This document shows positions 3,101 to 50,875 of a DNA stretch of 64,000 nt, piece by piece (the stretch's first letter is position 1; the number at the start of each line of letters is the position of its first letter). Position numbers and translations under genes: made by a program. Source of the DNA: a virus; the IMG/VR virus record IMGVR_UViG_3300025131_011243, positions 58,592 to 122,591 of that record, one strand, 5' to 3'. Below the pieces are notes generated by a model. The model worked only from the letters and a program-made list of their open reading frames with translations, was not told where the DNA came from and ran no database searches.

Positions 3101-6100
3101 GAACATCATCAACAACATCATCGGCAGCGTCTTCGTCGCCAAGGTCGATGTCAGAGCAAGGGCCTTCGTCTTCGCCCATGAATTCAGGACCATCAACACC
3201 ATCGATAGCGAGCGAGCCTGCGGCTCCTTCGGGATCGATTTCGATAGTAATAACCTGAGCTTTCTTGTTACCAAGCTGAGCTTGTGCGAACTTGTTGCAT
3301 GCTTCGATGAACGGAGCCTTGTCGGCAGGATCAGCACCTACTTCTTTGATCGATGCGTAGATGCGAAATCGACCGTCAAGACCTGAGATAGCGTCGTCCA
3401 ACGCAGAAAACTTGTCAGTGATCGGTTCATCTTCATGAACTTCGCTGAGCTTAGTTTTGACAATTGTGTCAACTTCTTTCATGGCTTCCTTGGAACGAAG
3501 AACATGTGATACTGATTCGTAAACGTCTTCGACCTTAAGGCCATGCTGAGCGTTGTCGGCAACGGCGAAGATCATGGCATCGAGACTATCTGGAGTTTCG
3601 ACGCTCTTTGTAGCCATCTTACGGAAGTAAGAAACATTATTGGCTACGGCAATGCGGTCTTCGCCCTTATGAGGAAGTGCGTTAATCAAGGTTAAGTAAG
3701 CGGCCTTTTCTCGCATATCGTCGTTGTCCTGAATCTTGGAAGCGACTCTGGTCAACTCTGCGGGAGTTCGGTTGTACTTAGCGATTGCATCGGAGATAGC
3801 TCCGACAGCGACCTTAACAACGGCTTGAGCATATTCTCTTGAAGCCCAACGCTTGATGCCGTAATCCTGATTACGCAATTGATCTTCGGTAATCGTTTCA
3901 TAGGTTCCGACAAAGCGGTGGCTACTGAGCAGATCTTTAAGCTGAGCTTCGGTAATCCACTCTTCTTGATCTGTAGAAAGTTTAGAAGCAACGGCACGAG
4001 AAAAATCGTTCCATTGCTTTTCAGTGATGACATCTTGCATATCTTTCCAGCGAACAATGTAGCCTTCAGAGACTACGTCAAGCTGGTCTTCGGTAATCGT
4101 TTCATACGTACCTCGACGAGTTTGTGGACTTTCGCTGGTTGTGTCATTGACGGGTTCGTTATCTAGACCGAGTTGTTGATCACTCTCGGTAATACCTTCA
4201 TAGGTATCGCCTGTTCTTGGGTGAAGGTCTAGGTCATTGGCATCTCGTATTTGTTTTTCAGTAATAACTTCGCCTTGCGAAGCGTCGTCATCTGACGGAT
4301 TGCCAATAGATGCTGTTTTTTCCTGATCAGACATTGTTTCTGACTCCTTGGAATTCCTATTTTCTAATACTGTTTGGGCTGCCTTTTCGACATCCTGCCC
4401 AAACAGGCTTTGGATGTCCTCTGATAATTCAGAAAGGTGAGAGACCTTAAGGACCTCCTCACCTTTAGCTTCTGTTACATATGATCCGTCGAAGGTAACG
4501 GAATACCCGTTATCTCCAGAAACTGTTGTTGTTGACATATTCTTGTCTCTTAAGTTAGAAACAGTGTTACGGACCTCTTCGATCCTTCTTGTGACTTTCG
4601 ATGCTGCTTTTATAAATTCCTTCTTTGAATTCAGTAATTCGTTTGACAATTTCGGTTTAGTGATCGTACCGACCCCACCCAAGTCGCCCGTTTCTGACCC
4701 TGGCATAGATGTTGCCACAGGCTCAGGAGGTGCTTGCGGAGGTGCTTCAGGACCCGCTGGATCTATTAAAGCAGGACCTTCGGATTCGCTAACTACATCT
4801 GGAGAAGGTAGTTGTGAATAACCCATTTCGTTTAATTCGTCTACAAGATCTTGAACTTTCTCCATAGCTTCAACCAGGTCAGACACATACGCCATCGAGA
4901 TATGTTCTTTTTGAGACAACATAGAGCGAGTAACTTCTTCCATATTGGTCATTGCATTTTTTAATGCTTCAAGTTCATTAACTCCGGCCTCTTTTTCCAT
5001 AAGTTCAGAGTTTACTTTGACAAAACCCTCATCATTAACATTGGATGCCATCTTGACTACTTGAGCACTAAGTTCGGCAACCTTCTGCTGTACCGAAGGT
5101 TTATGAAGGATGCAATCAACCAAGCAATCATGACAAGCTGGATTAACAACGAACGAATCCTCAATGAACTTGAGTCCGAAGTTATGCTCAAATGCTTGTT
5201 GAGCCTGGTGAACCAGAGTTTTCTTATCGCCCTTTTCTGTTCCGCAAAGAGGGCAACTATCAGTTGGCTTATTGTTACTCTGGTGATATTCGCACTTGTA
5301 GTTACCGCTGAGTTTACGATTCTTCTTCTCTCGAATATGCGAGCAATAGTCTTCTGCTGTATGAGCATGGTTGTGGCATACTGAGCAGCAGCTATAATCC
5401 ACTGCGCAGTTGTGTACAGCAACTCCCTCAACGATAAACGAATTGTCCTCGGCCACTTCTAGGTTAAAAACTGGCTGATCATTGGCTATGGTTTCTATTG
5501 CTTTTACAGGCATCACCATAAAGTTATCAGCATGCCTAAACCATGACTGCCTATAATTGCCCTCCACCACTTTTTGGTCACATGTATATCCATTGAGCTT
5601 TTGAGACTCATTAGAACCTATGGATATGTGATATGATGTTCTGCGATTACTCGTTTCTTTTACATAAAGCGATGAATATATACCCAGTCTGGCAAGAACG
5701 AACCTTAATTGATGAGCCAGTTTTTCAGAACATGTCGATGCTGACAAATTGTCATATTGTTTCCCGATTCTCCAGTGGGTTATTCTCCTGCGGCACCCAT
5801 CTCCTGCAAAATATGCTCCCAACAAATGAGCTTGAACCTCTTTATCCCAATACAGAATAGAACCAGACAGTTCCTTGCCATAAGAATATTCTCCACAATT
5901 CATCATAAACCAAGCAGCAACATCTTTATCATGGAATTTGACTGTTATCGTATTTTTATTTGGTCTTTCGTAAATCTTGGCCGATTTTCCGGTATTAGAG
6001 AATTCCTCGTCCAGAAGATTCGATACTTCCTGTGCTAATGTTTTTTCTTCCAATCCGAATGTAAGTTCTACACCAGTCTTAGACCCTTTGTATTTAACAT

Positions 6101-26636: not shown

Positions 26637-29600
26637 TTAGAGACATTTGCTCCAGCCGCAGGATTTACAAGTAGAGCAACCTTGGTTTCTTTCTAAAGCT
26701 CCACCGCAAGTTGGACATTCCTCTCCCGTCACCGAAGTTCCATCTTCAACGTACTTTTTCAAAACTCTTGCCAAAGCTTTGGCTGGCGACTGAAGGTCAC
26801 CTCTTGTCTTCTCAAGTTGATGGACAACAAACGCCACGTCAGCACCGTGCCTAAGGCTTGTCGATATCATCCTTGTCAGCGATTCTTCTTCTTCAGTACA
26901 GAATTCGCCTACGTTTTCTACTTCAACTTCGGTATCATGGTCACGGAATATACCTCGATACTTACCTCTACCTACTCTAGACATCTTTCCTTGAAGAATG
27001 GCGTTCCTTTTATGGAACCCGTTCTTACCAATAAAGATTTCGTATGGATCGGAACCAAGTAATCCGACAACGATCAAATACAATTGTCCGGTCACTCTGG
27101 TAAAATGAAGTTCTGCGTCAAGATCTTCAGGTCGTTTGGGAGCAACAGTCTTCGTAATGTGGTTTCCATTTCTTTCGTCTTCTTTTTTGTCTTCAACCAA
27201 CACGCCAGTACGACAATTCTTACGATACACAGTAATGCCTTTGCATCCTTGTTTCCATGCAGTCTCATAAATCTCGGCTACTTGTTCAACCTCAACGTCT
27301 TCGGGAAGATTGATCGTACTACTAATGGAATGATCAACATGTCTAGTAGCGGTTGCTTGCAGATGGACCCTTTGTTTCCAATTTATATCTTCGGCGCAAT
27401 GCCCAAACCATGGGGATTCTTCTACATTGTCTTTGCCGGTGACTTCCATCCATTTCTGTATTTGCGGATGGTAAACCGTAAACTCTTCCCAACAATCTCC
27501 GTTAGGATCAGTGAAGTCAACTCTCACGTTTTCATCATTGGGGTTGATCTTCTTGCGCCTCTTGTATCCGATCATGAACAGAGGCTCAATGCCAGAAGTT
27601 GTTCTTGTAAGAATACTAACGCTTCCTGCCGGGGCGGTTGTTAGGATAGCGATATTGCGACGACCGTATCGCTTCATATCTTCGTACAGTTTGGGATCTT
27701 CGTCCTTAATTCGGCGAAGGAAAGGATTGCTCTTTTCAAACTCATGGTCCCAGATTGGGAAAGGTCCCAACTCTTTAGCCATATCAACAGAACTTCTATA
27801 GCACCCTAGTTTCAAAGTGCGATAAATTTCGTCTACGACTTCAATACACTTCTTGCTACCATAGGCATATCCCATAGCCGCAATTGTATCGCCAAGCCCA
27901 GTAATGCCTGTTCCCGTTCTTCGTCCCTGCTCGCACTTCGTACGTATGCCTTCCCATAATTCCAGTTCTCTCTGTCTGACATGAGCAGGTTCAGGATCGT
28001 TTTTGATCTTGGATATGATGCTGTTAACTTTCTCCAATTCGAGATCAACCATATCGTCCATAAGACGTTGGATAATCTGAGCATGTTTGGAAAATAACTC
28101 AAAATCAAAGTAAGCTTTTCTTGTAAACGGATGAACAACATAGTTCAACAGGTTAAACAACATCAAACGACAAGAGTCATTGGCACACAATGTTAATTCG
28201 CTGCACGGATTTGTGCTGATTGTCATGAAACCAAAATCAGCGTAACAATCGGCTGGGGACTCTCGCAGGATATTGTCCCAGAACAATAAACCTGGCTCAG
28301 CCATAGCGTGAGCGTTTTCAACAATCTTCATCCAAACTTCTTTTGCATTTACTTTCTGAACGATGGTTGGTTTTTCTGCATCGATTGGCCATCTCTGTTC
28401 ATATTCTTGGTCATTTTCAACAGCTTTCAAAAACTCGTCCGACAAACGTACTGAGATATTAGCTCCCGTTACTCTTTGAAGGTCTTTCTTAACATTTGCA
28501 AAATCCAGAATTTCAGGATGATGCACAGATAGAGTCACCATCAAAGCGCCACGACGACCCGCTTGCCCAACTTCACGTATGGAGTTGGAATACCTTTCCA
28601 AGAAGGGGATAATGCCTGTCGAGGTTCTGGCTGCGTTGCGAGTAGCTGAGCCACTGGGGCGTAAATGAGAGATGTCCATCCCGGTTCCACCACGACGCTT
28701 GGATATTTGTACAAGATGCTCGTCTGCTCTTGCAATATCTCCATAGCTGTCTAAAGGAGAGTCAACAACGTAGCAGTTCAGGCTGACAAGGCCCTCTACA
28801 GGGTATGAATGATGGTTCTCTACCCCAATAGTGTATACATATTTAGGAGAAGATGTATTTAGAGTCTTAGAATCTATGCGAACAAACTTCCGTCCTCCTA
28901 TGTCTTTTACATGCCATTCTACCTCTTCTTTCTCGGATAGCGAATGTATCCTGTTGTCGTCGTAATGTTTTAGACTAGAAGATATAAAACTAGAGCATTT
29001 TGGGAAATCCAGACGAGCATAATAATTCTTCGCCAACTCAACATTAACACTTCTAGTTATGCCAATTGGTATATTGAAACTACGAAGAAGATGGTAGAAA
29101 GATTCAACCAATCCATGATTAGAAAGAACCACTCTCAAATCGCCATCTTTTGTTATAGTCCCATCAGAGTCTATCAAGCCTTGTGTAAGTGCGAGTACGA
29201 GTTCCTTGCTCCAGGTGAACATAGTATCATATATTTTTTTACCTTCCGATTTTCTTCCGAACAATTTTTCAAAAGCCATACCGATTAACGTGGAATGATA
29301 GACTATTTGCACGGTCCCATCTATGTGCTCGTTGTTATTGACATCCGGTTTAATGCCGAATATCTTTTCACCATACGTTGTTACATAGTCGATGATTTCT
29401 TTTTCATCTGATCCAAATGTAAAAGTTATACCTCTCACTTTGGGTTCTGTAGTATGTTTTCTATTTCGCAGACCCTTAGCACCGTAATTATCAAAAACGC
29501 AACCGTCGCCATACCAGAGGCCGACAAAATAAGCAAAATGTTCATCTACTGTCCAAACAGACTTTACCGCTTGATGGGATCTTGTTAACAATTTCGTAGT

Positions 29601-30431
29601 TTGTTTAGTTCGATATTGAGTGGCAAGTTGAATAGACGAATCGTCTCTACTAACTGTATAAATATGCTCTCCCCTTTGGTGCATATCTTCTGGAAAAAGT
29701 TCATTCAGATCAATACTGGGGGTTTCGTTATCCCAGTCAGAGTCATGATCGGGTATGGCGATATAATCACCTTCTCGGAGATATTCAACAGAATTCCACT
29801 GAGGTTCTTCTTCCCATTTTTCTTGTTCACTGGATAGGGATAGGAATTTATGATTATCCGTAACTGTTACGTTAGGAGTACGAAAGCATTTCAAATCAAA
29901 CATACGCCTGTTTCCGAGCAAGTTCTTATGCACTTGGGAAACCAACTCAAATGTACCATTGTGAGTAACAACCCTATCCCCCACACATACACCTTCTATG
30001 TTCTTAACACCATTGTCAGTCAAAACTCTCGTTCCTGGAGAAAAGCAATTGGATAGGGTAATAAATTGATGATTATTCCCAATCCCATACATCGGACTGC
30101 CTTGGGGAACGACGTATTTGAAATGATCTAGATAGTTGAATATATCTTGAGCGGAAAGGGGTTCTTTGAACTTACCGGCCTCGATACGGGCGAATTCGTT
30201 GGCCAGACGCCAATGCATCTGATCGGGAGTTTCTTCTAGAAGATTCTTTTCATTGTCTCTGAGAGCGTACTTGTCAAGGAATACTTTTGCGGCTAAATCG
30301 TCGCCGTCAAAGTAGTCCGTGCATTTCTCTAATGATTGATCGTAGTCGTAAAATACGGATTCGGAAACTGGTTTCTCGCCATTATCTTCCTGTTCTTTGG
30401 TTTTCTCTATCGTTACTGATTCAGGGGGCAT
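26637..30431 (-). CDS. nrdJ: class II (B12-dependent) ribonucleotide reductase with intein
   Basis: SNC, GRRGALM, TNPCSE, TAPAGS, KGITVYR; C-terminal TSCPD-like domain and zinc ribbon; start placed at ATG 30431 after GAGGAG. Confidence 0.9.
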   Translation of the reverse strand: MPPESVTIEKTKEQEDNGEKPVSESVFYDYDQSLEKCTDYFDGDDLAAKVFLDKYALRDNEKNLLEETPDQMHWRLANEFARIEAGKFKEPLSAQDIFNYLDHFKYVVPQGSPMYGIGNNHQFITLSNCFSPGTRVLTDNGVKNIEGVCVGDRVVTHNGTFELVSQVHKNLLGNRRMFDLKCFRTPNVTVTDNHKFLSLSSEQEKWEEEPQWNSVEYLREGDYIAIPDHDSDWDNETPSIDLNELFPEDMHQRGEHIYTVSRDDSSIQLATQYRTKQTTKLLTRSHQAVKSVWTVDEHFAYFVGLWYGDGCVFDNYGAKGLRNRKHTTEPKVRGITFTFGSDEKEIIDYVTTYGEKIFGIKPDVNNNEHIDGTVQIVYHSTLIGMAFEKLFGRKSEGKKIYDTMFTWSKELVLALTQGLIDSDGTITKDGDLRVVLSNHGLVESFYHLLRSFNIPIGITRSVNVELAKNYYARLDFPKCSSFISSSLKHYDDNRIHSLSEKEEVEWHVKDIGGRKFVRIDSKTLNTSSPKYVYTIGVENHHSYPVEGLVSLNCYVVDSPLDSYGDIARADEHLVQISKRRGGTGMDISHLRPSGSATRNAARTSTGIIPFLERYSNSIREVGQAGRRGALMVTLSVHHPEILDFANVKKDLQRVTGANISVRLSDEFLKAVENDQEYEQRWPIDAEKPTIVQKVNAKEVWMKIVENAHAMAEPGLLFWDNILRESPADCYADFGFMTISTNPCSELTLCANDSCRLMLFNLLNYVVHPFTRKAYFDFELFSKHAQIIQRLMDDMVDLELEKVNSIISKIKNDPEPAHVRQRELELWEGIRTKCEQGRRTGTGITGLGDTIAAMGYAYGSKKCIEVVDEIYRTLKLGCYRSSVDMAKELGPFPIWDHEFEKSNPFLRRIKDEDPKLYEDMKRYGRRNIAILTTAPAGSVSILTRTTSGIEPLFMIGYKRRKKINPNDENVRVDFTDPNGDCWEEFTVYHPQIQKWMEVTGKDNVEESPWFGHCAEDINWKQRVHLQATATRHVDHSISSTINLPEDVEVEQVAEIYETAWKQGCKGITVYRKNCRTGVLVEDKKEDERNGNHITKTVAPKRPEDLDAELHFTRVTGQLYLIVVGLLGSDPYEIFIGKNGFHKRNAILQGKMSRVGRGKYRGIFRDHDTEVEVENVGEFCTEEEESLTRMISTSLRHGADVAFVVHQLEKTRGDLQSPAKALARVLKKYVEDGTSVTGEECPTCGGALERNQGCSTCKSCGWSKCL
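28776..30047 (-). mobile_element. intein with LAGLIDADG endonuclease (~424 aa) in nrdJ
   Basis: TLSN|CFSPGTRV...YPVEGLVSLN|CYVV; blocks VGLWYGDG and QGLIDSDG. Confidence 0.92.
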
Positions 30432-30611
30432 CCCTTTCTCCTCTCCCAATGAATTGCCTAAAGACTATCGGTTAAGCTTACTCACATTACTTAGGCAATC
30501 ACATCTTCCTCCTGCCTTAAATCGGGAAAACATTTCTTGTCTTGTAAGATGTTGGTCAGCATCAATTTCGCATCAATTCCGCATAAGAATATTCTTGCCA
30601 ATCCGAAGCGA

Positions 30612-39946: not shown

Positions 39947-40164
39947 GGCTATATCCTTACGGCTTGCCAGCTTCTTCGTCTATATTTGACACTTTTCTGC
40001 TACGACATCCTGTTCTTCTTCAGACATGTCGCCCCAACAATCGTCCATGCGATCTCTTATTTCATCGCCAGAGGGATCGTCGTCCGATTTGTTGTCCAAC
40101 AACTTGAAAAGTCGTATGTATTCTTTTTGATTATCATTCATCATAAATTCCCTTAGTTTTAAAG

Positions 40165-40255
40165 CGGAGACGCTGGGATTCGAACCCAGGAAGGAGCAAT
40201 TCAGCCCCTTAATTGATTAGCAGTCAATCGCCTTCAACCACTCGGCCACATCTCC
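40165..40255 (-). tRNA. tRNA-Ser(GCT)
   Basis: cloverleaf, ATTGA-CTGCTAA-TCAAT, long variable arm, G73, no CCA. Confidence 0.93.
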
Positions 40256-40304
40256 TAATTTACCTATCGTCATGAAATGAATTTTACCAGACATGTAAAC
40301 ACAA

Positions 40305-40395
40305 AGGAAGGTAAGGGAATCGAACCCTCGGACCCCATTTCTAGGACCACTGGTTTTCCAAACCAGCACGACTAACCAACATCCGTCTACCTTCC
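40305..40395 (-). tRNA. tRNA-Ser(GGA), non-canonical (U73)
   Basis: CTGGT-TTGGAAA-ACCAG, T-arm GTTCGATT, long variable arm. Confidence 0.8.
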
Positions 40396-40403
40396 AAGTA
40401 GAA

Positions 40404-40497
40404 AGGAAGGTAAGGGGATCGAACCCTTGTAACCCCTTGTTCAGGGGTTAACTGGTTTTCGAAACCAGCGCAACAAACCAACATTTGCCTACCTTCC
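40404..40497 (-). tRNA. tRNA-Ser(CGA), non-canonical (U73)
   Basis: CTGGT-TTCGAAA-ACCAG; paralog of the preceding tRNA. Confidence 0.8.
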
Positions 40498-40514
40498 AAG
40501 TTTTTCCAAACAAG

Positions 40515-40572
40515 AGGAGAGTATGGGATTCGTTACGGTTGCTTCGTTTTCCGAAGCTGTTCATAACTCTCC
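40515..40572 (-). pseudogene. tRNA-derived mini-hairpin
   Basis: acceptor GGAGAGU/ACUCUCC and 3' half of the T-arm retained; D and anticodon arms replaced by a hairpin. Confidence 0.5.
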
Positions 40573-40576
40573 TAAG

Positions 40577-40663
40577 CGGAAGGGACAGGAATCGAACCTG
40601 CATCACGCTTCTAACGTGAAACCGTTTTCAAGACGGCTTAGCCCGCCAATAGCAAGCCCTTCC
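40577..40663 (-). tRNA. tRNA-Ser(TGA), atypical D-arm
   Basis: GCCGT-CTTGAAA-ACGGT, long variable arm, G73. Confidence 0.8.
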
Positions 40664-40748
40664 TAAATATCTGTCGGGAATCCACGCTACTTGAGACCAT
40701 CTGCCCTTTTTTCAAAAAGCATTGTTTGTAGTAAATTTCCTTGGCCAC

Positions 40749-41075
40749 CTACTGCCCCCATCTCATTGCCAACATTCCTGCTACTACCAAACCCAAACCT
40801 GTCCATTGCCATCCGCTGAACTTGTCTCCCGCTCCCAAATAAAGCATAGTCAACGGAAAGACAAGAAAGATTATACTATCAAAAAGAAGCCCGTCAAACA
40901 ACTGCCTCTTTGAAATAATAGATATCAACACCCACCATTGACCTAAGGCTCCCCAAAGGAAAGCCGTCCATGCCCAGAGATGTCCGCCGTCCTGATTCAG
41001 CCTAAAGGTGAAGTAGTAGTAGACGGAATACCAAACAGCTATGCATGGGACCCACCATAAATAATGATACCACAT
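40749..41075 (-). CDS. small multi-pass membrane protein (SMR/DMT-like)
   Basis: four hydrophobic helices, QWTGLGLVVAG. Confidence 0.6.
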   Translation of the reverse strand: MWYHYLWWVPCIAVWYSVYYYFTFRLNQDGGHLWAWTAFLWGALGQWWVLISIISKRQLFDGLLFDSIIFLVFPLTMLYLGAGDKFSGWQWTGLGLVVAGMLAMRWGQ

Positions 41076-41111
41076 TTTGTTTCATCTCCGCCTCCTGTCG
41101 CTGCTTCAAAA

Positions 41112-41165
41112 AGGAAGGTAAGGGAATCAAACCCTTGGACCCCATTTCTAGGACCATTCGCTTCC
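41112..41165 (-). pseudogene. internally deleted copy of tRNA-Ser(GGA)
   Basis: 41110-41156 matches 40303-40349 with 2 mismatches; 5' GGAAG retained. Confidence 0.7.
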
Positions 41166-41176
41166 TGTTATTTAAG

Positions 41177-41268
41177 CGGATAGGGAGGGATTCGAACCCT
41201 CAGATCATCAAAGACGACCCCCTGATTAGCAATCAGGTGTCCCGCACCAGTGGGAATCCAGCCTATCC
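41177..41268 (-). tRNA. second tRNA-Ser(GCT), atypical
   Basis: CCTGA-TTGCTAA-TCAGG; 6-nt connector before the D-stem. Confidence 0.75.
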
Positions 41269-43834: not shown

Positions 43835-44482
43835 CTACTTGTAACTCCGAACCGCAAAGTCCTTTAGAGTTACGGACCAACTCTTCCAACGAGGGTTGTC
43901 CGAAAGAACGTAGTCCAAAACTTCCTCAGCCACAACCGTAACGACTAGCATTACGATATTTCGGGCCAAAGGATAGTCACAGACATCTCCATCTTCCGAA
44001 TTTGCCGGAACTTGGTAAACGCTGTCCCAAACGACTTCTCCATAGTCCTCGAACAAACCGGAATGCAAGCAATCGATCTTGTTCTTAGAACAATAGTCGT
44101 GGAGAACCTGCCGGGCCTCGCTGTTGTCGAACGCATCGATAACAAGCTTAGCACCCTTGAGTAACTTCTTGACGTTTTTTTCTTCAAGCTTCTTGTTTAC
44201 AACGTCGATTTCCACGCCAACATCCCTCCAGATACGATTTTGCAAAGCCGTAACCTTCAAAGCTCCAACGTCGTTGTCGCCATAGACTTGAGTGTTGACG
44301 TTATGTTCGTCAACTCGGTCCATGTCGATGACGCAGATATCGCTTACGCCCTGACGGATCAGGGTCTCTACCAAGTTGCTACCCAAAGCACCCGCACCGC
44401 AAACAACGATACGAACGCCCTTGAGACGATCAATCAGACCTTCTCCACGGTAGGCGATTTCATGTGTGAATTTCTTGGCCAT
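43835..44482 (-). CDS. ThiF/E1-like ubiquitin-activating enzyme
   Basis: GAGALGS, DMDRVDEHNVNTQ, LKV, DAFDN..AR, candidate catalytic Cys in DVCDYP. Confidence 0.9.
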   Translation of the reverse strand: MAKKFTHEIAYRGEGLIDRLKGVRIVVCGAGALGSNLVETLIRQGVSDICVIDMDRVDEHNVNTQVYGDNDVGALKVTALQNRIWRDVGVEIDVVNKKLEEKNVKKLLKGAKLVIDAFDNSEARQVLHDYCSKNKIDCLHSGLFEDYGEVVWDSVYQVPANSEDGDVCDYPLARNIVMLVVTVVAEEVLDYVLSDNPRWKSWSVTLKDFAVRSYK

Positions 44483-44901
44483 TTTTTCGCTTTCTTCATA
44501 ATGGGTCTAACAACTGTCGGCATAACCCCCACAATTCTTTTCTTGATCATTCGAATATGTCCCTCAACGAAAGGTTGTTCGTCGTCAAAGAACCAGAAGC
44601 ATCTTAGCCCATCTGCTCCCTTAATGCAACATACAAACGGTCTTCCTTCGGCAACTATCCAAGCATTCATAGTTAAGATGTCGGTTGTGCTGGGACTTGC
44701 AATCATTGAAGGATGGGTATGAATCCAACCAATCACTCGATCAGGATCTCTCCTGACAAGTTCATGGTTGAATCCAACCCTAGCTGGGATGCCCAATTCA
44801 TAAGAGATAGCGCTCGTAACCCAAACGGGTCCGTACAGATCTCCTACCAAGATGTAGGACTCTTCGTCGCCAGTATTCATATTGAACATCAATCGCTCCA
44901 A
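44434..44901 (-). CDS. JAB/MPN+ metalloprotease
   Basis: N-terminal Glu plus WIHTHP....PS..D JAMM motif. Confidence 0.85.
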   Translation of the reverse strand: MERLMFNMNTGDEESYILVGDLYGPVWVTSAISYELGIPARVGFNHELVRRDPDRVIGWIHTHPSMIASPSTTDILTMNAWIVAEGRPFVCCIKGADGLRCFWFFDDEQPFVEGHIRMIKKRIVGVMPTVVRPIMKKAKKWPRNSHMKSPTVEKV

Positions 44902-45824
44902 TCTCCAGTGTAATCGTCGGTTCCTCTATCGTCTACGTCAAGATAGTTCCCGCCAACTCGGTAAATCTGGTTGCCCGTAATACCCTCTCGGATAACGCCA
45001 ACCAAACTCTGCAAGTCGAAGTTCCTATCTCCACCAGACAAACAGATGCCCGCCGATTGAACAGCAAGCGTTTTCTTATCAACAGTCGAACGATGAGTTT
45101 CACCATCGACAACATACTCGACAGTATACGACTCGCCTCGCTCAACGAAACTCCTGAATCCGCCACCAGCACGATTGATTGCCGACTTTACTCGACCTTC
45201 TGCCGTAAGAGCTTCCGCCTCGACAGCAAGCCTCTTGGCTTCCTTTTCGGCCTCAACAACATCGACCAAAGCAAGGTCGTAAGCACGTCTCTGTTCCTTT
45301 GACATACTTGAAAAATCAACGTCCTTCGGGGCAACGTTTTCTGACAAGGCATTTCTCAATACAGTTGCATGCTTGATGCTATGAGCGTCGTCGATCCTTT
45401 CGAACCAACAGTTGATGCCATCGAATCTAACACGCACTGCATCGAACAACTGCAATTCTTCCGGCAAAAGAATAGGAACAAATCCTTGAATCTTGAACCG
45501 GGAATCACCTTCGTTTGCAGGGATACCCCAGAAACGGTTGTCCTGTCGCCTGGTTGCGATCAACCTTAGAACAGGGAACAGGTTGAAGTACGTTCGCCTC
45601 TCGATCATCGTAGGCTCACGTACAAACTCTGCGAGCTTGTAGGAAGCGGGACGGAATACGCCCCAACCCTCAAAACCTCTCGGCTTTGAAACCCGCAATG
45701 ACATAACGATGTCAGCAATCTTAACCCTGATCGCCTTATTGCGCAGAACAGGGCTGAAGAATTCCGACTTGAGGAAAACATCTTCTTCCGCTGCCAACTT
45801 TTTCAAAAGCTCATTGACCTTCAT
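44889..45824 (-). CDS. uncharacterised protein of the Ubl/TROVE operon
   Basis: 311-aa ORF; C-terminal SAGICLSGGD..FDLQSLVGVIRE. Confidence 0.8.
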   Translation of the reverse strand: MKVNELLKKLAAEEDVFLKSEFFSPVLRNKAIRVKIADIVMSLRVSKPRGFEGWGVFRPASYKLAEFVREPTMIERRTYFNLFPVLRLIATRRQDNRFWGIPANEGDSRFKIQGFVPILLPEELQLFDAVRVRFDGINCWFERIDDAHSIKHATVLRNALSENVAPKDVDFSSMSKEQRRAYDLALVDVVEAEKEAKRLAVEAEALTAEGRVKSAINRAGGGFRSFVERGESYTVEYVVDGETHRSTVDKKTLAVQSAGICLSGGDRNFDLQSLVGVIREGITGNQIYRVGGNYLDVDDRGTDDYTGDWSD

Positions 45825-45896: not shown

Positions 45897-47441
45897 TTAC
45901 GCAACTTTCCTTTGAGGGAGAGTATACGACATAATTTCCATCAACAGATCGATCTTCGACGGCTTCGTCAAAAGCGGGATCAACCCCGGCAACGAGTAAT
46001 AGTCGCCGTTGAAGATATACGCATCGTAGTCGATGTCGTTATTGCGACATCGCTGTTCCAGCGTATCCCGATGCGTCCCGCACTTAACGAACAGAACGTT
46101 CGGACGAGTGTCCATATCCTTCATGTAGTTCAATATGCTGGACAAGAACGACGGAGATCGGTTCTCACCTTCGTCCGTAATCATGATGATGTTCTCGACG
46201 TACTGCTTGTTACGTCGAAGCATCTCAATTCCGACGCCGCAGGAAGTACATCCGGTAGCAAAGATGCCATTCAGAGCCTTTTCCCACGATGCCAAATCCG
46301 TTCCGCTCGAAACAATCGGATACGCCATTTCGTCACAAGCATAGACGAACAAATCAGCGTCCATGATTGCCGAAGTCATAGCAGCAATCTGCTTACCAAC
46401 TTCAATGGCGATGTTCATCGAACCGGACTTATCGATGATGATTGCCGTAGGACGCTTGATACGTCCCTTCGACTTCAACTGAGCATCACCGATGTCCTCA
46501 AGCTGCTTGGCAACGTCTTCGTCAATATCAGTAGTCTTCTTGACCTGGGACGCTTTCATAGCCGCAACACGCTTGCCCGTCTTTGCCTTGTCAAGACGTT
46601 CCTGAATGAACGCCTTGAGGTCCGGGTTGTCGAATGCACCACGACGCTTCAACGAACCGATGTTGTTGATCAACTCTTGGTCACTCATGACCTGAACCAA
46701 AGCCAAAAGAACGGTCGGACTCATTGCCGAGATTACCGTCGATGCGATTCGGTACGGAACCTTGTTGGCGATGATGATCTCAGCCTGCTTTGCAGCCGAC
46801 TCAGTCTTACGCAGTTCCTTAACCGCCTTCAACTTGCTGTCATCAGGCGGATCTTCATCGAAGAGAATCTTTTGCGCTCGATCCGAAGGCTCAATGTGGA
46901 GAAGAGAGTAAACCCTCTTCAACGACTTTCGAGCCTGCAAAACGCAAGCGTCGAACCAAACCGGATCGTCTTCACGATCAGTCAGGTATCGCTTAACTTC
47001 CGTTGCAACAGATCGAGGAATATTCTTGCCCAGACCAGAATCCGTCAAAGCCGTTCGATGAGTCGTCTTCTGGTTGCGGCCAGTTCCAGTCGTAACCGGA
47101 GTACTGACCTTTTTCTTGCGACCGTGAATGAAGTCGATAACTCTCTCCACCTGATAAGGCGGCAGTTCACGGAGCATGGCCAGTCCAACGTCTCGGTGTC
47201 CTTCGAAGTTGCTCAGACACAGGTTGACGATGAACAGTTCCTTATGGTCACGGATCTCGCCATTGTCAGCATACCATGCGCCCAAACGAACGTAGAACAA
47301 CGGATCTTGAGCAATCATCTGTTCATGAACAGGATGACTTGCGCTCAGATTTCTGTGGGGAGTCATCAACAGCGTATTCAGCATCCCCAAACGAAGATCC
47401 TGTTCACTGGACGTATCAACTTGTGCAGTTCGTACAGCCAT
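45897..47441 (-). CDS. Ro60/TROVE-like helical domain plus vWA protein
   Basis: N-terminal DPLFYVRL..W....EIRD, ELINNIGSLKRRG, C-terminal MIDAS IDKSGSM, TSCG, ITDEGEN; adjacent Y-like RNAs. Confidence 0.75.
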   Translation of the reverse strand: MAVRTAQVDTSSEQDLRLGMLNTLLMTPHRNLSASHPVHEQMIAQDPLFYVRLGAWYADNGEIRDHKELFIVNLCLSNFEGHRDVGLAMLRELPPYQVERVIDFIHGRKKKVSTPVTTGTGRNQKTTHRTALTDSGLGKNIPRSVATEVKRYLTDREDDPVWFDACVLQARKSLKRVYSLLHIEPSDRAQKILFDEDPPDDSKLKAVKELRKTESAAKQAEIIIANKVPYRIASTVISAMSPTVLLALVQVMSDQELINNIGSLKRRGAFDNPDLKAFIQERLDKAKTGKRVAAMKASQVKKTTDIDEDVAKQLEDIGDAQLKSKGRIKRPTAIIIDKSGSMNIAIEVGKQIAAMTSAIMDADLFVYACDEMAYPIVSSGTDLASWEKALNGIFATGCTSCGVGIEMLRRNKQYVENIIMITDEGENRSPSFLSSILNYMKDMDTRPNVLFVKCGTHRDTLEQRCRNNDIDYDAYIFNGDYYSLPGLIPLLTKPSKIDLLMEIMSYTLPQRKVA

Positions 47442-47491
47442 GGTCTTTCTCCTTAGAAAGAGTTTTACAAATTATCGATTCGGATTCGGAA

Positions 47492-47701
47492 TTAACCGAA
47501 TACAGCCTGCGGACGAAGAGTCATGTCACCGGTTTCTGCGTTGCGGTCAACAACGAAACCATTCATCTTGGTGAGAGGAGCACTGAAGTGATTAGCTACA
47601 GCCTGCTTGACGTCTTGGTCGGTAGAGAGATCGCCCACATCGATATCCTCGAAGAGAAGATCGAACGATTCTCCATTGTATCTGACGTGAAGTACTGACA
47701 T
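47492..47701 (-). CDS. ubiquitin-like (beta-grasp) small protein
   Basis: 69 aa, beta-beta-alpha-beta-beta pattern, ends in Gly (QAVFG), co-operonic with E1 and JAB. Confidence 0.75.
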   Translation of the reverse strand: MSVLHVRYNGESFDLLFEDIDVGDLSTDQDVKQAVANHFSAPLTKMNGFVVDRNAETGDMTLRPQAVFG

Positions 47702-47746
47702 TTTTCATCTCCTTTCGTCTGCAAGCCTCAAGAGAGGCATAAAAAA

Positions 47747-47878
47747 AGCCTTGTCTAAGTTTCAGGACGGTTTCTTGGGTAACGTGCAAGATTTGAACTT
47801 GCGACCTTCACTTCCTAATAGTGACGCTCAACCTACTGAGCTAACGTTTGTAACGTCCAAATTGTTGGAGACAAGGCT
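47747..47878 (-). ncRNA. Y-RNA-like RNA with nested tRNA-like domain
   Basis: terminal stem AGCCUUGUCU/AGACAAGGCU plus U-tract; inner D, anticodon (loop AUUAGGA) and T arms; shared motif. Confidence 0.75.
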
Positions 47879-47881
47879 AAG

Positions 47882-48016
47882 TGGGAGAGGTAGGAGTCGA
47901 ACCTACGAGTCTTGCGTTTTCAGGGCAATGCTTTACCAAAAGTTTGTAAGCTACATCCCATTGGAGACGGACAAGCCGTCTAAGTCAGAATAGCTATAGC
48001 ACTAAGCTACTCTCCC
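47882..48016 (-). ncRNA. tRNA-like (GAA anticodon) RNA with ~60-nt motif insert in the D-loop
   Basis: acceptor GGGAGAG/CUCUCCC, T-arm GUAGG-UUCGACU-CCUAC; insert ACUUAGAC..GUCUCCAA..UACAAAC. Confidence 0.75.
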
Positions 48017-48041
48017 ATAATTATTCAGTTTTCAAAAAGCG

Positions 48042-48112
48042 AACGTCCAAGTTCAGGCAGCGGTCAAAGCATTCCGAAGATTGGTTTGTATGCTGTCCTT
48101 GTTGGGGACGTC
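48042..48112 (-). ncRNA. stand-alone minimal Y-like motif RNA
   Basis: ACGUCCCCAA..CAGCAUACAAAC..GCUGCCUGAACUUGGACGU. Confidence 0.65.
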
Positions 48113-48126
48113 AACTTAATTTCAAG

Positions 48127-48268
48127 TGGGGGAGACAGGACTCGAACCTGTAGTCTTTCGCTTATGAGGCAAACGCTTTTCCATTTGTTTGTAAGCTACG
48201 ACCTATTGGAGACGAACAAGCCGTCTAAGTTGGAATAGCTGTTTAACGTAGTTTTTAGCTACTCCCCC
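48127..48268 (-). ncRNA. tRNA-like (CAU anticodon) RNA with motif insert in the D-loop
   Basis: acceptor GGGGGAG/CUCCCCC, T-arm ACAGG-UUCGAGU-CCUGU; insert nearly identical to that in 47882..48016. Confidence 0.75.
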
Positions 48269-48273
48269 ATGGA

Positions 48274-48318
48274 GGTCCCGGTCGCCAAGTTTCCGAAGAA
48301 GCTTGACGAGTCAGGACC
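48274..48318 (-). other. stable hairpin within the RNA array
   Basis: GGUCCUG..UCGUCAAG..CUUGGCGA..GGGACC. Confidence 0.45.
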
Positions 48319-48349
48319 ATATAGTTTTCAAAGAACTCTTTGAAAAGTC

Positions 48350-48516
48350 AAGAAGAAACAGGCGTCCAAGTTCGAGCAGCGGTATGACATTAGTCACAGA
48401 TCTTAAATCTGTTGCCTTATCCACTTGGCTATACGTTCATGTTGGTGAACATAGTGGGATTCGAACCCACGTTGTTGTTTGTACGCTACGCCAGTAGGGG
48501 ACGCCGGTTTCTTCTT
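48350..48516 (-). ncRNA. Y-like RNA containing a circularly permuted tRNA-Leu(UAA)-like domain
   Basis: order T-arm, acceptor 3' strand + ACCA, loop, acceptor 5' strand, D-arm, anticodon arm, all within the motif stem. Confidence 0.75.
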
Positions 48517-48592
48517 CACTTGTCAAAGTCGAGCCTTACGACTCTGCCCTATCTTATCAGCTTCCCAGCCACTTTCAAGGGCAATATTCAAC

Positions 48593-48620
48593 TTATCGGC
48601 TTTTTCTTGAAATTCCTTTA
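48593..48620 (-). promoter_or_regulatory. sigma28-like promoter upstream of the RNA array
   Basis: TAAA-N16-GCCGATAA; a sigma70-like TTGAAA-N16-TAAGAT also lies just downstream. Confidence 0.55.
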
Positions 48621-48636
48621 ATGAATTCCGCAAAGC

Positions 48637-48945
48637 TCAGTTTTTCTTACCTCTCGCAGCTTCAGAGGGCATCTTACCATATCTTTTATGGCTGTCAACC
48701 CCTAAATCATCGTCGTCAAAATCATCTCCGTCATCCCAAACTTCTCCGTTCTCATCTTTGTAACGCTCGTCTTTCATCCAAGTTATCACAACAGGATCTT
48801 CGCCTCGATAAAACTTTTCCTGATGCTGCCCGTCATGATCCTGGGGGAGAGGACATCGGACGGTAGCAACCCCATCGCCAAAGTCGTCTCCGATATAAAG
48901 GTGAGCATTACATTCGCCTTCAACATCTTCTGGTTTTCCAAACAT
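48637..48945 (-). CDS. hypothetical protein
   Basis: 102-aa ORF, AGGAGA RBS. Confidence 0.65.
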   Translation of the reverse strand: MFGKPEDVEGECNAHLYIGDDFGDGVATVRCPLPQDHDGQHQEKFYRGEDPVVITWMKDERYKDENGEVWDDGDDFDDDDLGVDSHKRYGKMPSEAARGKKN

Positions 48946-48964
48946 TCGTTTCTCCTAAGTTAAG

Positions 48965-49046
48965 TGCGGAAGGAGGGACTTGAACCCTCAAGCCTTACGG
49001 CACTGGATTTTAAATCCAGCGTGTTTGCCAATTTCACCACTCCCGC
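48965..49046 (-). tRNA. tRNA-Leu(TAA)
   Basis: CTGGA-TTTAAAA-TCCAG, variable arm, A73. Confidence 0.93.
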
Positions 49047-49047
49047 T

Positions 49048-49518
49048 CTATTCATTCCAATCGCTGTCGATCATATCGTAAGGATCGAAACCCATTCTTT
49101 TCAACTTGTTCCAAAAGCGAATGTTATCTCGTTCTCTTTGTTCCTGTTTCTCCTCTTCCTTTCTAGCCCATTCTTCTCGATGCAATTTAATCTCTTCCAG
49201 CCTTGCCCTGCGACATTGGCTACACATGTTCCATAGGTATCTGCATCGCACATGAGGGTCAAGCTTCCGTCTTGCATGTTCGGTAAACTTGCTGCTATCC
49301 TTTTTGTTTGCCGTTTTCTTTACCTTGTACTGAGTCTTGCGATGCTTCTTCCAAGACCTTACGATGGTCGTTGAAACGTCGTCCCATGCGTCAGGCAACA
49401 TTCGGGGAGTCCTTTTCCCTCGAATCCTGTAACGCATTTCAGCATCTTCCATGTCCTCCAAGGACCCGTAGTAGCCACGACGTTCATTGGTCGTTGCGGG
49501 GGATCTGAAGTAACCCAT
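49048..49518 (-). CDS. hypothetical basic protein
   Basis: 156 aa, LPDAWDD..RSWKKHRKTQY. Confidence 0.7.
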   Translation of the reverse strand: MGYFRSPATTNERRGYYGSLEDMEDAEMRYRIRGKRTPRMLPDAWDDVSTTIVRSWKKHRKTQYKVKKTANKKDSSKFTEHARRKLDPHVRCRYLWNMCSQCRRARLEEIKLHREEWARKEEEKQEQRERDNIRFWNKLKRMGFDPYDMIDSDWNE

Positions 49519-49522
49519 TTTC

Positions 49523-49581
49523 GTATCTCCTATGCAAAGTTAAACACTTCACATAGGAGATACCGGCTTTGTCCTTTTCAT
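49523..49581 (-). promoter_or_regulatory. RBS-sequestering hairpin overlapped by a 10-aa uORF
   Basis: 12-bp perfect inverted repeat 49523-49534/49552-49563; uORF MKRTKPVSPM 49549..49581. Confidence 0.55.
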
Positions 49582-49597
49582 ATCTGTATCCTTTCAA

Positions 49598-49683
49598 TAC
49601 GGGCGAGAGGGGTCGAACCTCCATAGGATTTTACTCCCGCCAGATCCTAAGTCTGGTGCGTCTGCCAGTTCCGCCACGCCCGC
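49598..49683 (-). tRNA. tRNA-Leu(TAG)
   Basis: CCAGA-CTTAGGA-TCTGG. Confidence 0.93.
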
Positions 49684-49692
49684 TCTTTCAAA

Positions 49693-49778
49693 TACGGATA
49701 AGAGGAGTCGAACCTCCATGGGATTTTACTCCCGCTAGATTCTGAGTCTAGTGCGTCTGCCTATTCCGCCACATCCGC
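49693..49778 (-). tRNA. tRNA-Leu(CAG)
   Basis: CTAGA-CTCAGAA-TCTAG. Confidence 0.93.
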
Positions 49779-50270
49779 TCTTAAGTCATTTTTGTTCTTG
49801 TTCCTTCCTCCATATGTAGGAGTTTGACTATGACAATTTGGACATAGTAATCTAAGATTCCTTATGCGATTGTCTGTCCTGTCTCCGTTCTCGTGGTCCA
49901 AATGCATTGAAAGAGGTTCTCCATTCCACTCTGTTCCCATTCCGCATTTAGAACATTTTTCTTCCAGTTTGCCACATTCGATTAACCTTTTCTTAAGGTG
50001 GCAATTGTTGTATACGACTCCCTTTTTTAGGAGATCCCTTAACTCTCTCTTACTAGGTGGGCTCCATGTTTTATCAAGCTTTCTTCTAGATGCCTGCCCT
50101 AAAAAATGACTCGTATCTATCTTGAAGTTTTCAATCTTGCCCTTCAAGTGAGAATGATTCCCCCCTGAAGGAGCAAGCCCTATCTTCTCCAAAACCTGGC
50201 TAATGGAGAAAGAAGTAGCTACTGCCTCCTCCAGATCTTGGATAGAATACCTTTTCGACGTATGCTTCAT
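49761..50270 (-). CDS. HNH homing endonuclease in the tRNA cluster
   Basis: CSKCG..LDHENGDRTDNRIRNLRLLCPNCHSQT; stop codon lies inside tRNA-Leu(CAG). Confidence 0.92.
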   Translation of the reverse strand: MKHTSKRYSIQDLEEAVATSFSISQVLEKIGLAPSGGNHSHLKGKIENFKIDTSHFLGQASRRKLDKTWSPPSKRELRDLLKKGVVYNNCHLKKRLIECGKLEEKCSKCGMGTEWNGEPLSMHLDHENGDRTDNRIRNLRLLCPNCHSQTPTYGGRNKNKNDLRADVAE

Positions 50271-50333
50271 ATTGCACCTCCACTATTAGGTACAATATCT
50301 TATAGTAAACCTCCTTCACAATTTACCAATGAG

Positions 50334-50358
50334 GTTTGCCAGTTTCCGTCACCTGGGC
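50334..50358 (-). pseudogene. 5' fragment of a tRNA-Leu
   Basis: GCCCAGGTGACGGAAACTGGCAAAC, truncated in the D-arm. Confidence 0.55.
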
Positions 50359-50555
50359 TTTATTTTACCATGTTTGCCTCACGGATGCATCCTTTTTCTT
50401 GCCAAATTCTTTTTCTTCTGTCGAATTCAAAGGGATTCTATGATCCCGCAGGATGTCAAAGAGATTTCGTTTACCTTGCCGGTCTTCGGCTCTCTTACGG
50501 TCATAGTCGTCTCCTTCGTCGTTTGCTTGAGTTTTCATAGCAGTTCTCCTTTTAA

Positions 50556-50639
50556 TGCACCGGGTTGGATTCGAACCAACGTAGACTTTCGCCAACAGTT
50601 TGACAGACTGCTGCAACTCTCCAACTTTGCCGCACGCTC
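50556..50639 (-). pseudogene. degenerate long-arm tRNA with GTC anticodon
   Basis: D, anticodon and T arms fold but the acceptor stem has three mismatches. Confidence 0.55.
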
Positions 50640-50646
50640 TCAGTTA

Positions 50647-50684
50647 TTACAGCCTACCGGGCTCACCACCTGCCCAACTCGCCT
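50647..50684 (-). pseudogene. 5' half of tRNA-Tyr(GTA)
   Basis: AGGCGAG-TT-GGGC..GCCC-G-GTAGG-CTGTAA then breaks. Confidence 0.6.
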
Positions 50685-50697
50685 ATTAAGTTTCAAA

Positions 50698-50780
50698 TAC
50701 CCCTGACAGGAGTCGAACCTGTACGCCTTAATCGGCAGTAGGTTTTGAACCTACCGTGTCTGCCGTTCCACCACAGGGGC
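50698..50780 (-). tRNA. tRNA-Leu(CAA)
   Basis: GTAGG-TTCAAAA-CCTAC. Confidence 0.93.
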
Positions 50781-50791
50781 TCTGTTTCAAA

Positions 50792-50875
50792 AGGCCGCTG
50801 AGGGATTCGAACCCTCGATGGCTTAACGCCAGCGGATTTGCAATCCGCTCCCTTTGTCCGCTCGGGCAAACGGCC
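50792..50875 (-). tRNA. tRNA-Cys(GCA) with long variable arm
   Basis: GCGGA-TTGCAAA-TCCGC, U73, extra arm TGGC-GTTAA-GCCA. Confidence 0.85.

Follow-up and report, generated by a model that had tools for sequence, protein, structure and literature searches.

The stretch of viral DNA considered here, referred to as the window, comprises 64,000 nucleotides (nt), positions 58,592-122,591, of the IMG/VR record IMGVR_UViG_3300025131_011243, a contig of 122.6 kb that is estimated to be 26% complete. It is a fragment of a huge phage with a ribonucleotide reductase (inteins), NAD synthesis genes, a sigma factor, and tRNA arrays, and the metagenomes that contain this DNA are of marine, seawater, and hydrothermal-vent origin. 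On the minus strand, at 47741-48516, lie five tandem structured RNAs, units A to E, and downstream of them a gene for a protein of 514 amino acids (aa) with a predicted Ro60 fold (45897-47441, minus). The order along the RNA strand, from 5′ to 3′, is unit E, a UUCG-capped hairpin, units D, C, B, and A, a 69-aa open reading frame (ORF), and the 514-aa ORF, with 300 nt between the end of unit A and the Ro60-fold gene. The five RNAs share one module, a conserved, covarying, and strand-specific RNA element that is portable, carries tRNA-like payloads, and is strictly linked to a Ro60-fold gene.

The Shared Module

The module is made of two complementary halves. Half A consists, from 5′ to 3′, of an outer strand, GUCY, CCNAY, six to seven nt that hold the 5′ strand of an inner helix (often AGCN), and UACAAAC; half B consists of the 3′ strand of the inner helix, four to five nt, ACUU, RGAC, and the outer 3′ strand. 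Together they form a core helix, GUCY/RGAC plus at least two outer pairs, the conserved flank of which is an asymmetric internal loop of CCNAY opposite ACUU. A profile search with nhmmer finds exactly five copies of half A (CGUCYCC..UACAAAC) in the window, all within 47846-48503 and on the strand of the Ro-like gene, and the five copies of half B (..ACUURGAC) lie within 47751-48385 on the same strand. A strict 26-position pattern of half A matches the window twice at up to two mismatches, exactly in both cases, versus 0.04 matches expected, and a hairpin-model search of the whole 122.6-kb record recovers the hairpin site of unit D and nothing outside the RNA locus.

The outer helix is GUCC/GGAC in units E and C and GUCU/AGAC in units D, B, and A, and the inner helix is GUAGCG/CGCUGC in E, GUAGCU/AGCUAU in D and B, CAGC/GCUG in C, and GGACG/CGUCC in A. 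An initial annotation of this DNA, made from the letters alone, had described five elements with common halves A and B; all five were confirmed in place on the minus strand, and the outer and inner pairings that it named (GUCU/AGAC, GUCC/GGAC, GGACG/CGUCC, UAGCU/AGCUA, CAGC/GCUG, and GUAGCG/CGCUGC) are present. Its description of a bulged-C GUC helix recalling Y RNAs holds in part: the helix is there, while a literal bulged C is not established and the likeness to Y RNAs is loose (CCNAY/ACUU internal loop).

Architecture of the Units

Unit A (47741-47878, minus) has a 10-bp terminal stem (AGCCUUGUCU/AGACAAGGCU) which, with the inner helix GGACG/CGUCC, flanks a class-I tRNA-like body in natural order. 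Aragorn calls this body as tRNA-Leu(tag) at 47777-47850, and it scores 50.9 bits on the Rfam tRNA model (RF00005, threshold 29 bits). It has a D arm, only five acceptor pairs, and the anticodon UAG, the same as that of a normal class-II tRNA-Leu at 49598-49683, and the 3′ end of the unit is a run of seven uridines (U7).

Units B (47882-48016, minus; 33.2 bits) and D (48127-48268, minus; 35.4 bits) also pass the tRNA threshold. Each has a T arm, the discriminator A, and an anticodon arm, with the acceptor stem GGGAGAG/CUCUCCC and the loop CUGAAAA (anticodon GAA) in B, and the 7-bp acceptor stem GGGGGAG/CUCCCCC and the loop CUCAUAA (anticodon CAU) in D. Between the 7-bp acceptor stem and the anticodon arm, a 58-nt module hairpin with the halves permuted stands in for the D arm (in B at 47942-47999, minus, 57.7 bits and E 1.9e-11 on hairpin model R1; in D at 48187-48244, minus, 54.5 bits and E 1.2e-10). 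On the 3′ side of UACAAAC, many units of this hairpin type contain a D-loop-like ..GG.. stretch, AAAUGG in D and UUUUGG in B. An alternative D stem in B and D (GCUU/AAGC), drawn by the Rfam tRNA alignment, was rejected because its 3′ strand is not conserved in the hairpin-type units of other loci, whereas the inner helix covaries. The hairpin was also considered as an intron and rejected, since by inspection its removal from D or B leaves no canonical D arm.

Unit C (48034-48115, minus; fold -23.3 kcal/mol, z -3.6) consists of a terminal stem with the module, a payload of 17 nt (a UUCG hairpin in which CAAA pairs with UUUG), and a U5 run, and has no match to the Rfam tRNA model. In unit E (48350-48516, minus; half A at 48477-48503, half B at 48363-48385), the module is held in a 17-bp terminal stem. 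Inside this stem lies a circularly permuted tRNA, which runs from a T arm through a closed acceptor-like hairpin and a D arm to a complete anticodon arm (anticodon UAA). This arm has five base pairs and a loop of seven nt (ACAGA-UUUAAGA-UCUGU), and the module leaves from the variable region. Unit E folds at -63.6 kcal/mol (z -7.98, 0/200 shuffles) and scores 24.5 bits on the tRNA model, below the threshold. The anticodon loops are of seven nt with U33 and R37. A complete tRNA cloverleaf is found in none of the units, as B and D are without a D arm, A has five acceptor pairs, and E is permuted. The topologies drawn initially therefore stand for the acceptor extension of A, for C, and for the variable-loop position in E; the hairpin of B and D, on the other hand, occupies the place of the D arm and is not inserted in a D loop. 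The UUCG-capped hairpin between units E and D (48274-48318, minus; fold -25.2 kcal/mol, z -5.0) has the base GUCC/GGAC but none of the signatures CCNAY, ACUU, and UACAAAC, and it may lie outside the RNA family.

Covariation, Strand, and Strain Comparison

Further copies come from 16 IMG/VR loci that encode relatives of the 514-aa protein, referred to here as the Ro clade. A half-A profile gives 66 matches at E ≤1 in the window and these loci, 66/66 on the strand of the Ro gene, and those in the 16 loci are almost all upstream of the Ro-clade gene. Two of the 66 have no UACAAAC part and overlap the ribosome-binding site of the Ro-clade gene; these were dropped and 64 were kept. A complementary half B is found near 62 of the 64, in hairpin form (half B-loop-half A) in 26 and in terminal-stem form around a payload in 36. 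The partner half B was chosen by ACU and by complementarity of the outer helix, and the inner helix was not used for this choice. The outer helix has 6.00 of 6 pairs with the true partner versus 4.86, a statistic that is partly circular because the partners were picked by complementarity. For the inner helix, the longest stem is 6.25 with the true partner, compared with 4.49 for partners from other units (0/2000 shuffles) and 4.47 for partners from other loci only, and the two forms taken separately give 6.37 versus 4.52 and 6.08 versus 4.57.

In a MAFFT alignment of the 26 hairpins, a hand-written structure has 91.3% of its cells paired versus 75.2% after shuffling. Ten of the 12 pairs have changed on both sides (compensatory), and the covariation score is 0.564 versus 0.248 (0/500 shuffles), so both helices covary across these copies, as the initial annotation had claimed. 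When the partner is slid by one to three columns, 31.7-49.7% of cells are paired. In 11 of 26 rows the first inner pair (columns 5/55) does not form, and therefore the nucleotide just 5′ of UACAAAC is often left unpaired. Fifteen core-helix types occur, including GUCC/GGAC, GUCU/AGAC, AUCC/GGAU, GUUC/GAAC, GCCC/GGGC, GUCA/UGAC, GUGC/GCAC, and ACUC/GAGU. The G.U pairs in the module helices fit the strand of the Ro gene only, as the opposite strand would give C.A.

A contig from run X8, representing a related strain, spans the array with 49 substitutions and 23 gap letters; the comparison rests on the differences listed, which are all but six substitutions and eight indels. Among these differences none breaks either module helix, and the helix changes are compensatory or pair-improving: G.U to A-U in the outer helix of unit C, G.U to G-C in the hairpin of unit D, U.G to U-A in the anticodon stem of unit D, one double change from U-A to C-G in the acceptor hairpin of unit E, and three compensatory double changes in the UUCG hairpin at 48274-48318. 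The anticodon changes from CAU to CUU in D and from UAA to UAG in E, and the anticodon loop of B is altered in both sequence and length.

Connectivity Classes in Related Phages

The module is portable, being closed by the RNA's own ends (A, C, and E) or loop-capped inside a tRNA-like body (B and D). The initial annotation had spoken of three different positions on the tRNA scaffold; four connectivities are found instead, each recurring in related phages, and its notion of a modular tag on diverse tRNA bodies agrees with one covarying module in several such connectivities. In type A (unit A), for which 11 units were scored strictly, the module closes the ends around a natural-order tRNA. The acceptor 5′ strand overlaps UACAAAC with six to seven pairs in 9/11; it reads AAACAAU in 5/11, and a further five are A/U-rich variants that overlap UACAAAC. 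In strict register, NCCA is encoded after the acceptor in 3/11 units, and by eye five units read ..UUU(A/U)CCA or ..UUUAACCA. The type-A bodies score 46-70 bits (up to 69.9) on the Rfam tRNA model and are always class-I-sized, with anticodons assigned by Aragorn to Asn, Thr, Arg, Glu, Leu, Trp, Gly, Ile, Met, and Ser.

In type P (units B and D), the module is a capped hairpin at the site of the D arm. A strict canonical T arm is present in 18 of the 26, and 18/18 of these have a perfect 7-bp acceptor stem, versus 1.2% of shuffles. The acceptor 5′ strand sits 1-17 nt 5′ of the hairpin, and in 13/18 the 5′ strand of a standard unit then follows within 20 nt, as in the pairs D-C and B-A of the window. 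Type C (unit C) is represented by ten units with payloads of 13-23 nt, and type E (unit E) by five, with a 7-nt anticodon loop in 5/5 and a T-acceptor-D core that matches positions 30-81 of the YrlA model (26.2-27.7 bits in the relatives). Of 33 tRNA-like bodies, a crude script assigns an anticodon arm to 22 (criteria: at least four of five stem pairs, U33, and R37), with register errors behind several of the misses, and in most units the payload is a complete tRNA shape with an anticodon arm. Matches of model R1 at 29.8-46.7 bits (for example, 3679-3750 in locus L004 and 2585-2662 in locus L016) were rejected as hairpins, for they join half B and half A of neighbouring units.

Of 61 distinct units, 58 have exactly UACAAAC; ACUU is found in 52, ACUC in eight, and ACUA in one, and all four bases occur at the middle position of CCNAY. 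The heptamer UACAAAC belongs to the strand running into the payload. In types A and C it is paired, because there it forms part of the acceptor-like stem, and in types P and E it is apparently single-stranded. Its near-invariance points to a sequence-specific reading.

The Ro60-Fold Protein

The 514-aa protein is a Ro60 by predicted fold only. An AlphaFold2 (AF2) model built from 31 relatives, with a predicted local distance difference test (pLDDT) of 84.7 and a predicted template-modelling (pTM) score of 0.74, has a HEAT-repeat ring and a vWA domain with the MIDAS (metal-ion-dependent adhesion site) motif D337-x-S339-x-S341, the three residues of which are invariant in the 31 relatives. In a Foldseek search of the Protein Data Bank (PDB), the top 12 matches are all Ro60 structures (Xenopus, human, Deinococcus, and the phage phiLo; E 1.3e-12 to 2.4e-8, TMq 0.56-0.68), with phiLo at ranks 11-12 and generic vWA domains ranking after them. 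The TROVE protein of the initial annotation is therefore upheld as a predicted Ro60 fold and not as a Pfam TROVE match. Among the sequences of solved structures, the single likeness is to the phiLo TROVE protein at E 0.19.

At least 1920 of 8000 candidates scored are relatives of the 514-aa protein, some of them on contigs of 338-590 kb, and two relatives, P0058 and P0106, pass the Pfam cut-off for the Ro60 vWA domain (29.2 and 28.7 bits versus 27.7). Among 50,697 GenBank phage records, a relative is found by tblastn at 1e-3 only in LR756511.1, an uncultured phage of 595 kb, and at that threshold none of the cultured phages with a known Ro60 in these records matches the 514-aa protein.

Linkage of the Module to the Ro-Clade Gene

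The exact half-A pattern has 35 matches in IMG/VR. Thirty-one have a partner half, 31/31 of these on six contigs that carry a Ro-clade gene, and the other four, which have no partner, come from four contigs where this gene is absent. Of 42 matches on contigs of bacterial and archaeal genomes, only six are accompanied by a partner, and the other 36 are therefore mostly chance; in 3/3 bacterial genomes tested with partnered modules, the Ro-clade gene lies directly downstream, at 54-63% identity. Metagenome contigs give at least 120 pattern matches, with a partner in 92 of 120 among the matches listed, and at the nhmmer threshold modules lie within about 4 kb of the Ro-clade gene in 10 of the 16 viral loci. 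In the search of phage and bacterial genomes that the initial annotation had suggested, modules thus recur with a Ro60-fold gene (31/31 viral, 3/3 bacterial genomes).

The phage record LR756511.1 has 15 UACAAAC modules within the 4.2 kb upstream of its Ro-clade gene and at least 15 in the record. Zavarzinella formosa DSM 19928, a cultured planctomycete, encodes a Ro-clade protein at 54% identity with three modules upstream; reading of the upstream sequence gives one type-A and two type-E-like units, one with UACACAC. In this locus (L212; NZ_JH636440.1, about 285.1-287.6 kb), a protein-kinase-like gene lies upstream of the modules. The record IMGVR_UViG_3300015263_000944 (L022, L026, and L027; 126-128 kb and 141.6 kb) has verified modules 5-20 kb from the Ro-clade gene, so that the 4 kb upstream do not always hold the whole array.

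In three loci, a partial module hairpin (ACUUGGAC-loop-GUCCCCAAnAAGGAGA; core helix and loops) overlaps the Shine-Dalgarno sequence of the Ro-clade gene, at 3948-3987 in L016 (31.7 bits), 3953-3984 in L004 (23.7 bits), and 4940-4974 in L213 (18.2 bits). Such hairpins would fit translational autoregulation by the Ro-like protein. The Ro-fold gene of the window has no module hairpin at its Shine-Dalgarno sequence, and the U7 run and the 69-aa ORF intervene there.

Neighbouring Genes

The 69-aa ORF between unit A and the Ro-fold gene (47492-47701, minus) ends in ...AVFG and gave no match in searches of the Pfam, PHROG, and NCBIfam libraries. Directly downstream of the Ro-fold gene is a gene for a 311-aa protein, termed protein X (44889-45824, minus); at this same position 10 of 14 related loci also encode a protein X, of about 280-335 aa and at 28-52% identity. 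A sequence search of protein X against solved structures gave no match, and its model has only weak OB-fold/S1-like matches, with template-modelling (TM) scores of at most 0.26. Protein X is followed by a Prok-JAB protein and then by a ThiF/E1-like protein in the window (43835-45824, minus) and in the related loci L003, L005, L006, L010, L012, and L014, the Prok-JAB protein being found in four loci and weakly in the window, and the ThiF/E1-like protein in five loci and the window. Together with the 69-aa ORF ending in ...AVFG, these genes look like a ubiquitin-like or sulfur-carrier set; a tie of the Prok-JAB/ThiF-like genes to tRNA thiolation or to the RNAs is speculation.

Class-II tRNA arrays flank the RNA locus at 40164-41268 and 48964-50875 (minus), with five tRNA-Ser in the one and four tRNA-Leu and one tRNA-Cys in the other, and an HNH endonuclease gene (49761-50270) lies among the tRNAs. 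The anticodon loop of unit A, AUUAGGA, is close to CUUAGGA of the neighbouring tRNA-Leu(UAG), and that of unit E, UUUAAGA, to UUUAAAA of tRNA-Leu(UAA). Elsewhere in the window are very long ORFs with intein/LAGLIDADG insertions, at 141-7061 (minus; 2306 aa) and at 26637-30449 (minus; the 1270-aa ribonucleotide reductase). A promoter scan of the RNA locus gave three hexamers versus 2.2 expected, which is not above chance, and the RNA strand of the locus showed no hairpin-type terminator.

Comparison with Known Systems

Ro60 orthologs with adjacent tRNA-like Y RNAs are reported for 254 bacteria and 22 phages, and three tandem YrlAs are listed near the Ro gene of Caulobacter phage CcrColossus (PMC4201824 and its supplement). 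YrlA has a motif GNCGAA(N0-1)G near its 5′ end, and in M. smegmatis it is cut by RNase P and gains CCA (PMC4201824). In YrlA the anticodon stem runs on into the Ro-binding stem, and an anticodon loop is absent (10.1101/312249). The Ro60 of Thermus phage phiLo binds two upstream Y-like RNAs, Yrl1 and Yrl2 (PMC12135203; PDB 9KOP, 9L5Y).

The RNAs described here resemble YrlA (RF02553) in that they lie upstream of a Ro60-type gene, often in tandem, and combine a docking stem with a tRNA-like effector domain. Unit E also has the YrlA order of T arm, closed acceptor hairpin, and D arm, whereas the other units differ: A has the natural tRNA order, B and D have an open acceptor stem, and C is without a tRNA body. 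The Rfam YrlA model, with a threshold of 69 bits, gives 19.8 bits for unit E (positions 30-81 only, E 0.59) and no match for units A, B, C, and D. The consensus of the module is distinct, including an inner helix and the near-invariant UACAAAC, and the module occurs in four connectivities, including an internal hairpin, and in arrays of at least 15 units. The RNAs keep a full anticodon arm, which YrlA as described in 10.1101/312249 lacks; the complete arm of unit E bears out the view of the initial annotation that these topologies differ from YrlA.

With the metazoan and Deinococcus Y RNAs (Yrn1), the RNAs share a terminal stem formed by the ends, a conserved helix flanked by unpaired C-rich nucleotides of the 5′ strand, and a 3′ U run, and unit C approximates a minimal Y RNA. 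The 3′ strand ACUUGGAC resembles the ACUUGAC of human Y1. The helix differs from that of Y RNAs in being GUCY/RGAC flanked by CCNAY/ACUU, with no GGUCCGA, and in B and D it takes the form of a capped hairpin inside the RNA, a form of which the literature searched gives no Y RNA example. The phiLo system likewise combines a phage Ro60-fold protein with Y-like RNAs directly upstream (PMC12135203). It differs in that a bulge with a CGAA motif defines its Yrls, which in the portion of that paper cited here are not described as tRNA-like (PMC12135203), and the likeness of the proteins stands at E 0.19. As for tRNA (RF00005), units A, B, and D pass the model, and canonical T arms together with 7-bp acceptor stems are a further likeness of B and D. 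The departures are the replaced D arm of B and D, the permuted order and closed acceptor stem of E, and, in A, a class-I body that has five acceptor pairs and a Leu anticodon.

The module consensus, the internal hairpin form, the retention of the anticodon arm, four connectivities per locus, and 15-unit arrays are not described in the literature searched. Nor is there a description of permuted or arrayed phage Y RNAs in that literature, which leaves out one 2020 review. The text of PMC4201824 has no word containing 'permut', and the Ro clade treated here is possibly listed in one supplement of that paper outside the search. The locus works like a Y RNA/YrlA system, yet it is not a member of Rfam YrlA or Y_RNA.

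Proposed Explanation and Alternatives

The units probably belong to a family of noncoding RNAs, similar to Y RNAs, whose partners are a divergent clade of Ro60-fold proteins carried by phages and planctomycetes. The RNAs would be expressed, and by analogy the Ro-like ring protein would bind the module as Ro60 binds the conserved stem of Y RNAs and thereby stabilise the RNA. The tRNA-shaped domain would be the effector end, engaging tRNA-binding factors; during infection it may present the Ro particle to tRNA-binding enzymes or soak them up, candidate targets being host nucleases that cleave tRNA and the enzymes of tRNA processing, modification, or repair. Standard units finish in a U run and probably have 3′ ends of their own, and hairpin-type units would usually be transcribed immediately upstream of a standard unit, as a dimer.

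Several observations weigh against this explanation. Neither GNCGAA nor GGUCCGA occurs on the RNA strand within 47740-48530. When the comparison with Rfam Y RNA and YrlA suggested by the initial annotation was run, Y_RNA gave no match at E ≤10 in 47000-49200, and the RNAs stay below the YrlA threshold (19.8 bits here and 26-28 in relatives, versus 69). The 514-aa protein has no match in Pfam (even at E 10), PHROG, or NCBIfam, and so stands outside Pfam TROVE. Because the known motifs are absent and the Rfam YrlA and Y_RNA models fail, docking to the Ro protein rests on gene neighbourhood and analogy. It could be protein X, another conserved neighbour, that reads the module, and the type-A bodies score like real tRNAs (up to 69.9 bits), so that part of the family might be working tRNAs. 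The anticodon changes between close strains can mean a relaxed constraint on that loop.

We consider it unlikely that the units are working phage tRNAs or pre-tRNAs, with the module as a leader/trailer or an intron-like handle for processing or quality control, a precursor chaperoned or checked by the Ro-like protein, and a tRNA for translation set free through RNase P and 3′ processing. The type-A bodies reach 46-70 bits and 3/11 of them encode NCCA; unit A, however, combines a Leu anticodon with a class-I body of five acceptor pairs and duplicates the normal class-II tRNA-Leu(UAG) at 49598-49683. In 9/11 type-A units the acceptor 5′ strand, with six to seven pairs, starts inside UACAAAC, so that RNase P would cut within the motif, and RNase P cleavage followed by CCA is on record for the YrlA of M. 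smegmatis (PMC4201824); yet five of the 11 have the AAACAAU acceptor strand in common despite different anticodons and five more are A/U-rich, a poor fit to distinct aminoacylation identities. In hairpin-type units the 7-bp acceptor stem is perfect and rich in G/C and the T arm is canonical, and the locus lies among real tRNA genes, whereas B and D are without a D arm, unit C and nine further minimal units have no tRNA body at all, and unit E is circularly permuted with a closed acceptor stem.

That a factor other than the Ro protein reads the module, such as protein X, a nuclease, or the transcription/termination machinery, with the Ro gene as a mere neighbour, seems to us quite improbable. 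Protein X lies next to the Ro gene in 10 of 14 loci and has OB-fold/S1-like matches, but these are weak (TM ≤0.26). The U runs at the ends of standard units mean that terminal stems could double as terminators, a role excluded for the hairpin form, which is internal. The absence of the known Ro-contact motifs favours another reader, against which stand the partial module hairpins on the Shine-Dalgarno sequence of the Ro gene in three loci, as autoregulation by Ro would look, and the established pattern of a Y RNA beside Ro (PMC4201824). A DNA-level repeat (ends of mobile elements, protein-binding sites, or promoters) or a chance resemblance to tRNA genes is hardly credible. The units are tandem with promoter-like hexamers between them (three versus 2.2 expected), yet compensatory changes maintain two helices, the G.U pairs work on one strand only, 66/66 copies have the same orientation relative to the Ro gene, and the halves match their own partner and not those of other units.

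Within the preferred explanation of Ro-associated, Y-RNA-like RNAs, a bolder version is possible but doubtful, namely that the module is a portable protein handle which evolution has attached at several positions to tRNAs that are otherwise complete. The units would then be Ro-mounted, anticodon-bearing look-alikes, up to 15 or more per phage and with different, fast-changing anticodons, that might act as decoys or sensors for host defence nucleases that cleave tRNA or in the handover of damaged tRNAs to enzymes of repair or decay. Some hairpin-type units may be chargeable tRNAs with a protein-binding arm in place of the D arm.

Implications

This family offers dozens of natural variants with which to approach the role of the tRNA-like end of bacterial Y RNAs. 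The same module attached at different points of the tRNA, with and without a free acceptor end and always with an anticodon arm, comes near to a natural structure-function series. The Ro60 clade is missed by domain databases and is common in huge phages, and its presence in the cultured planctomycete Zavarzinella formosa DSM 19928 makes the ribonucleoprotein open to bench tests. If the anticodon arms matter, Ro particles would be tied to the conflict between phage and host over tRNAs.

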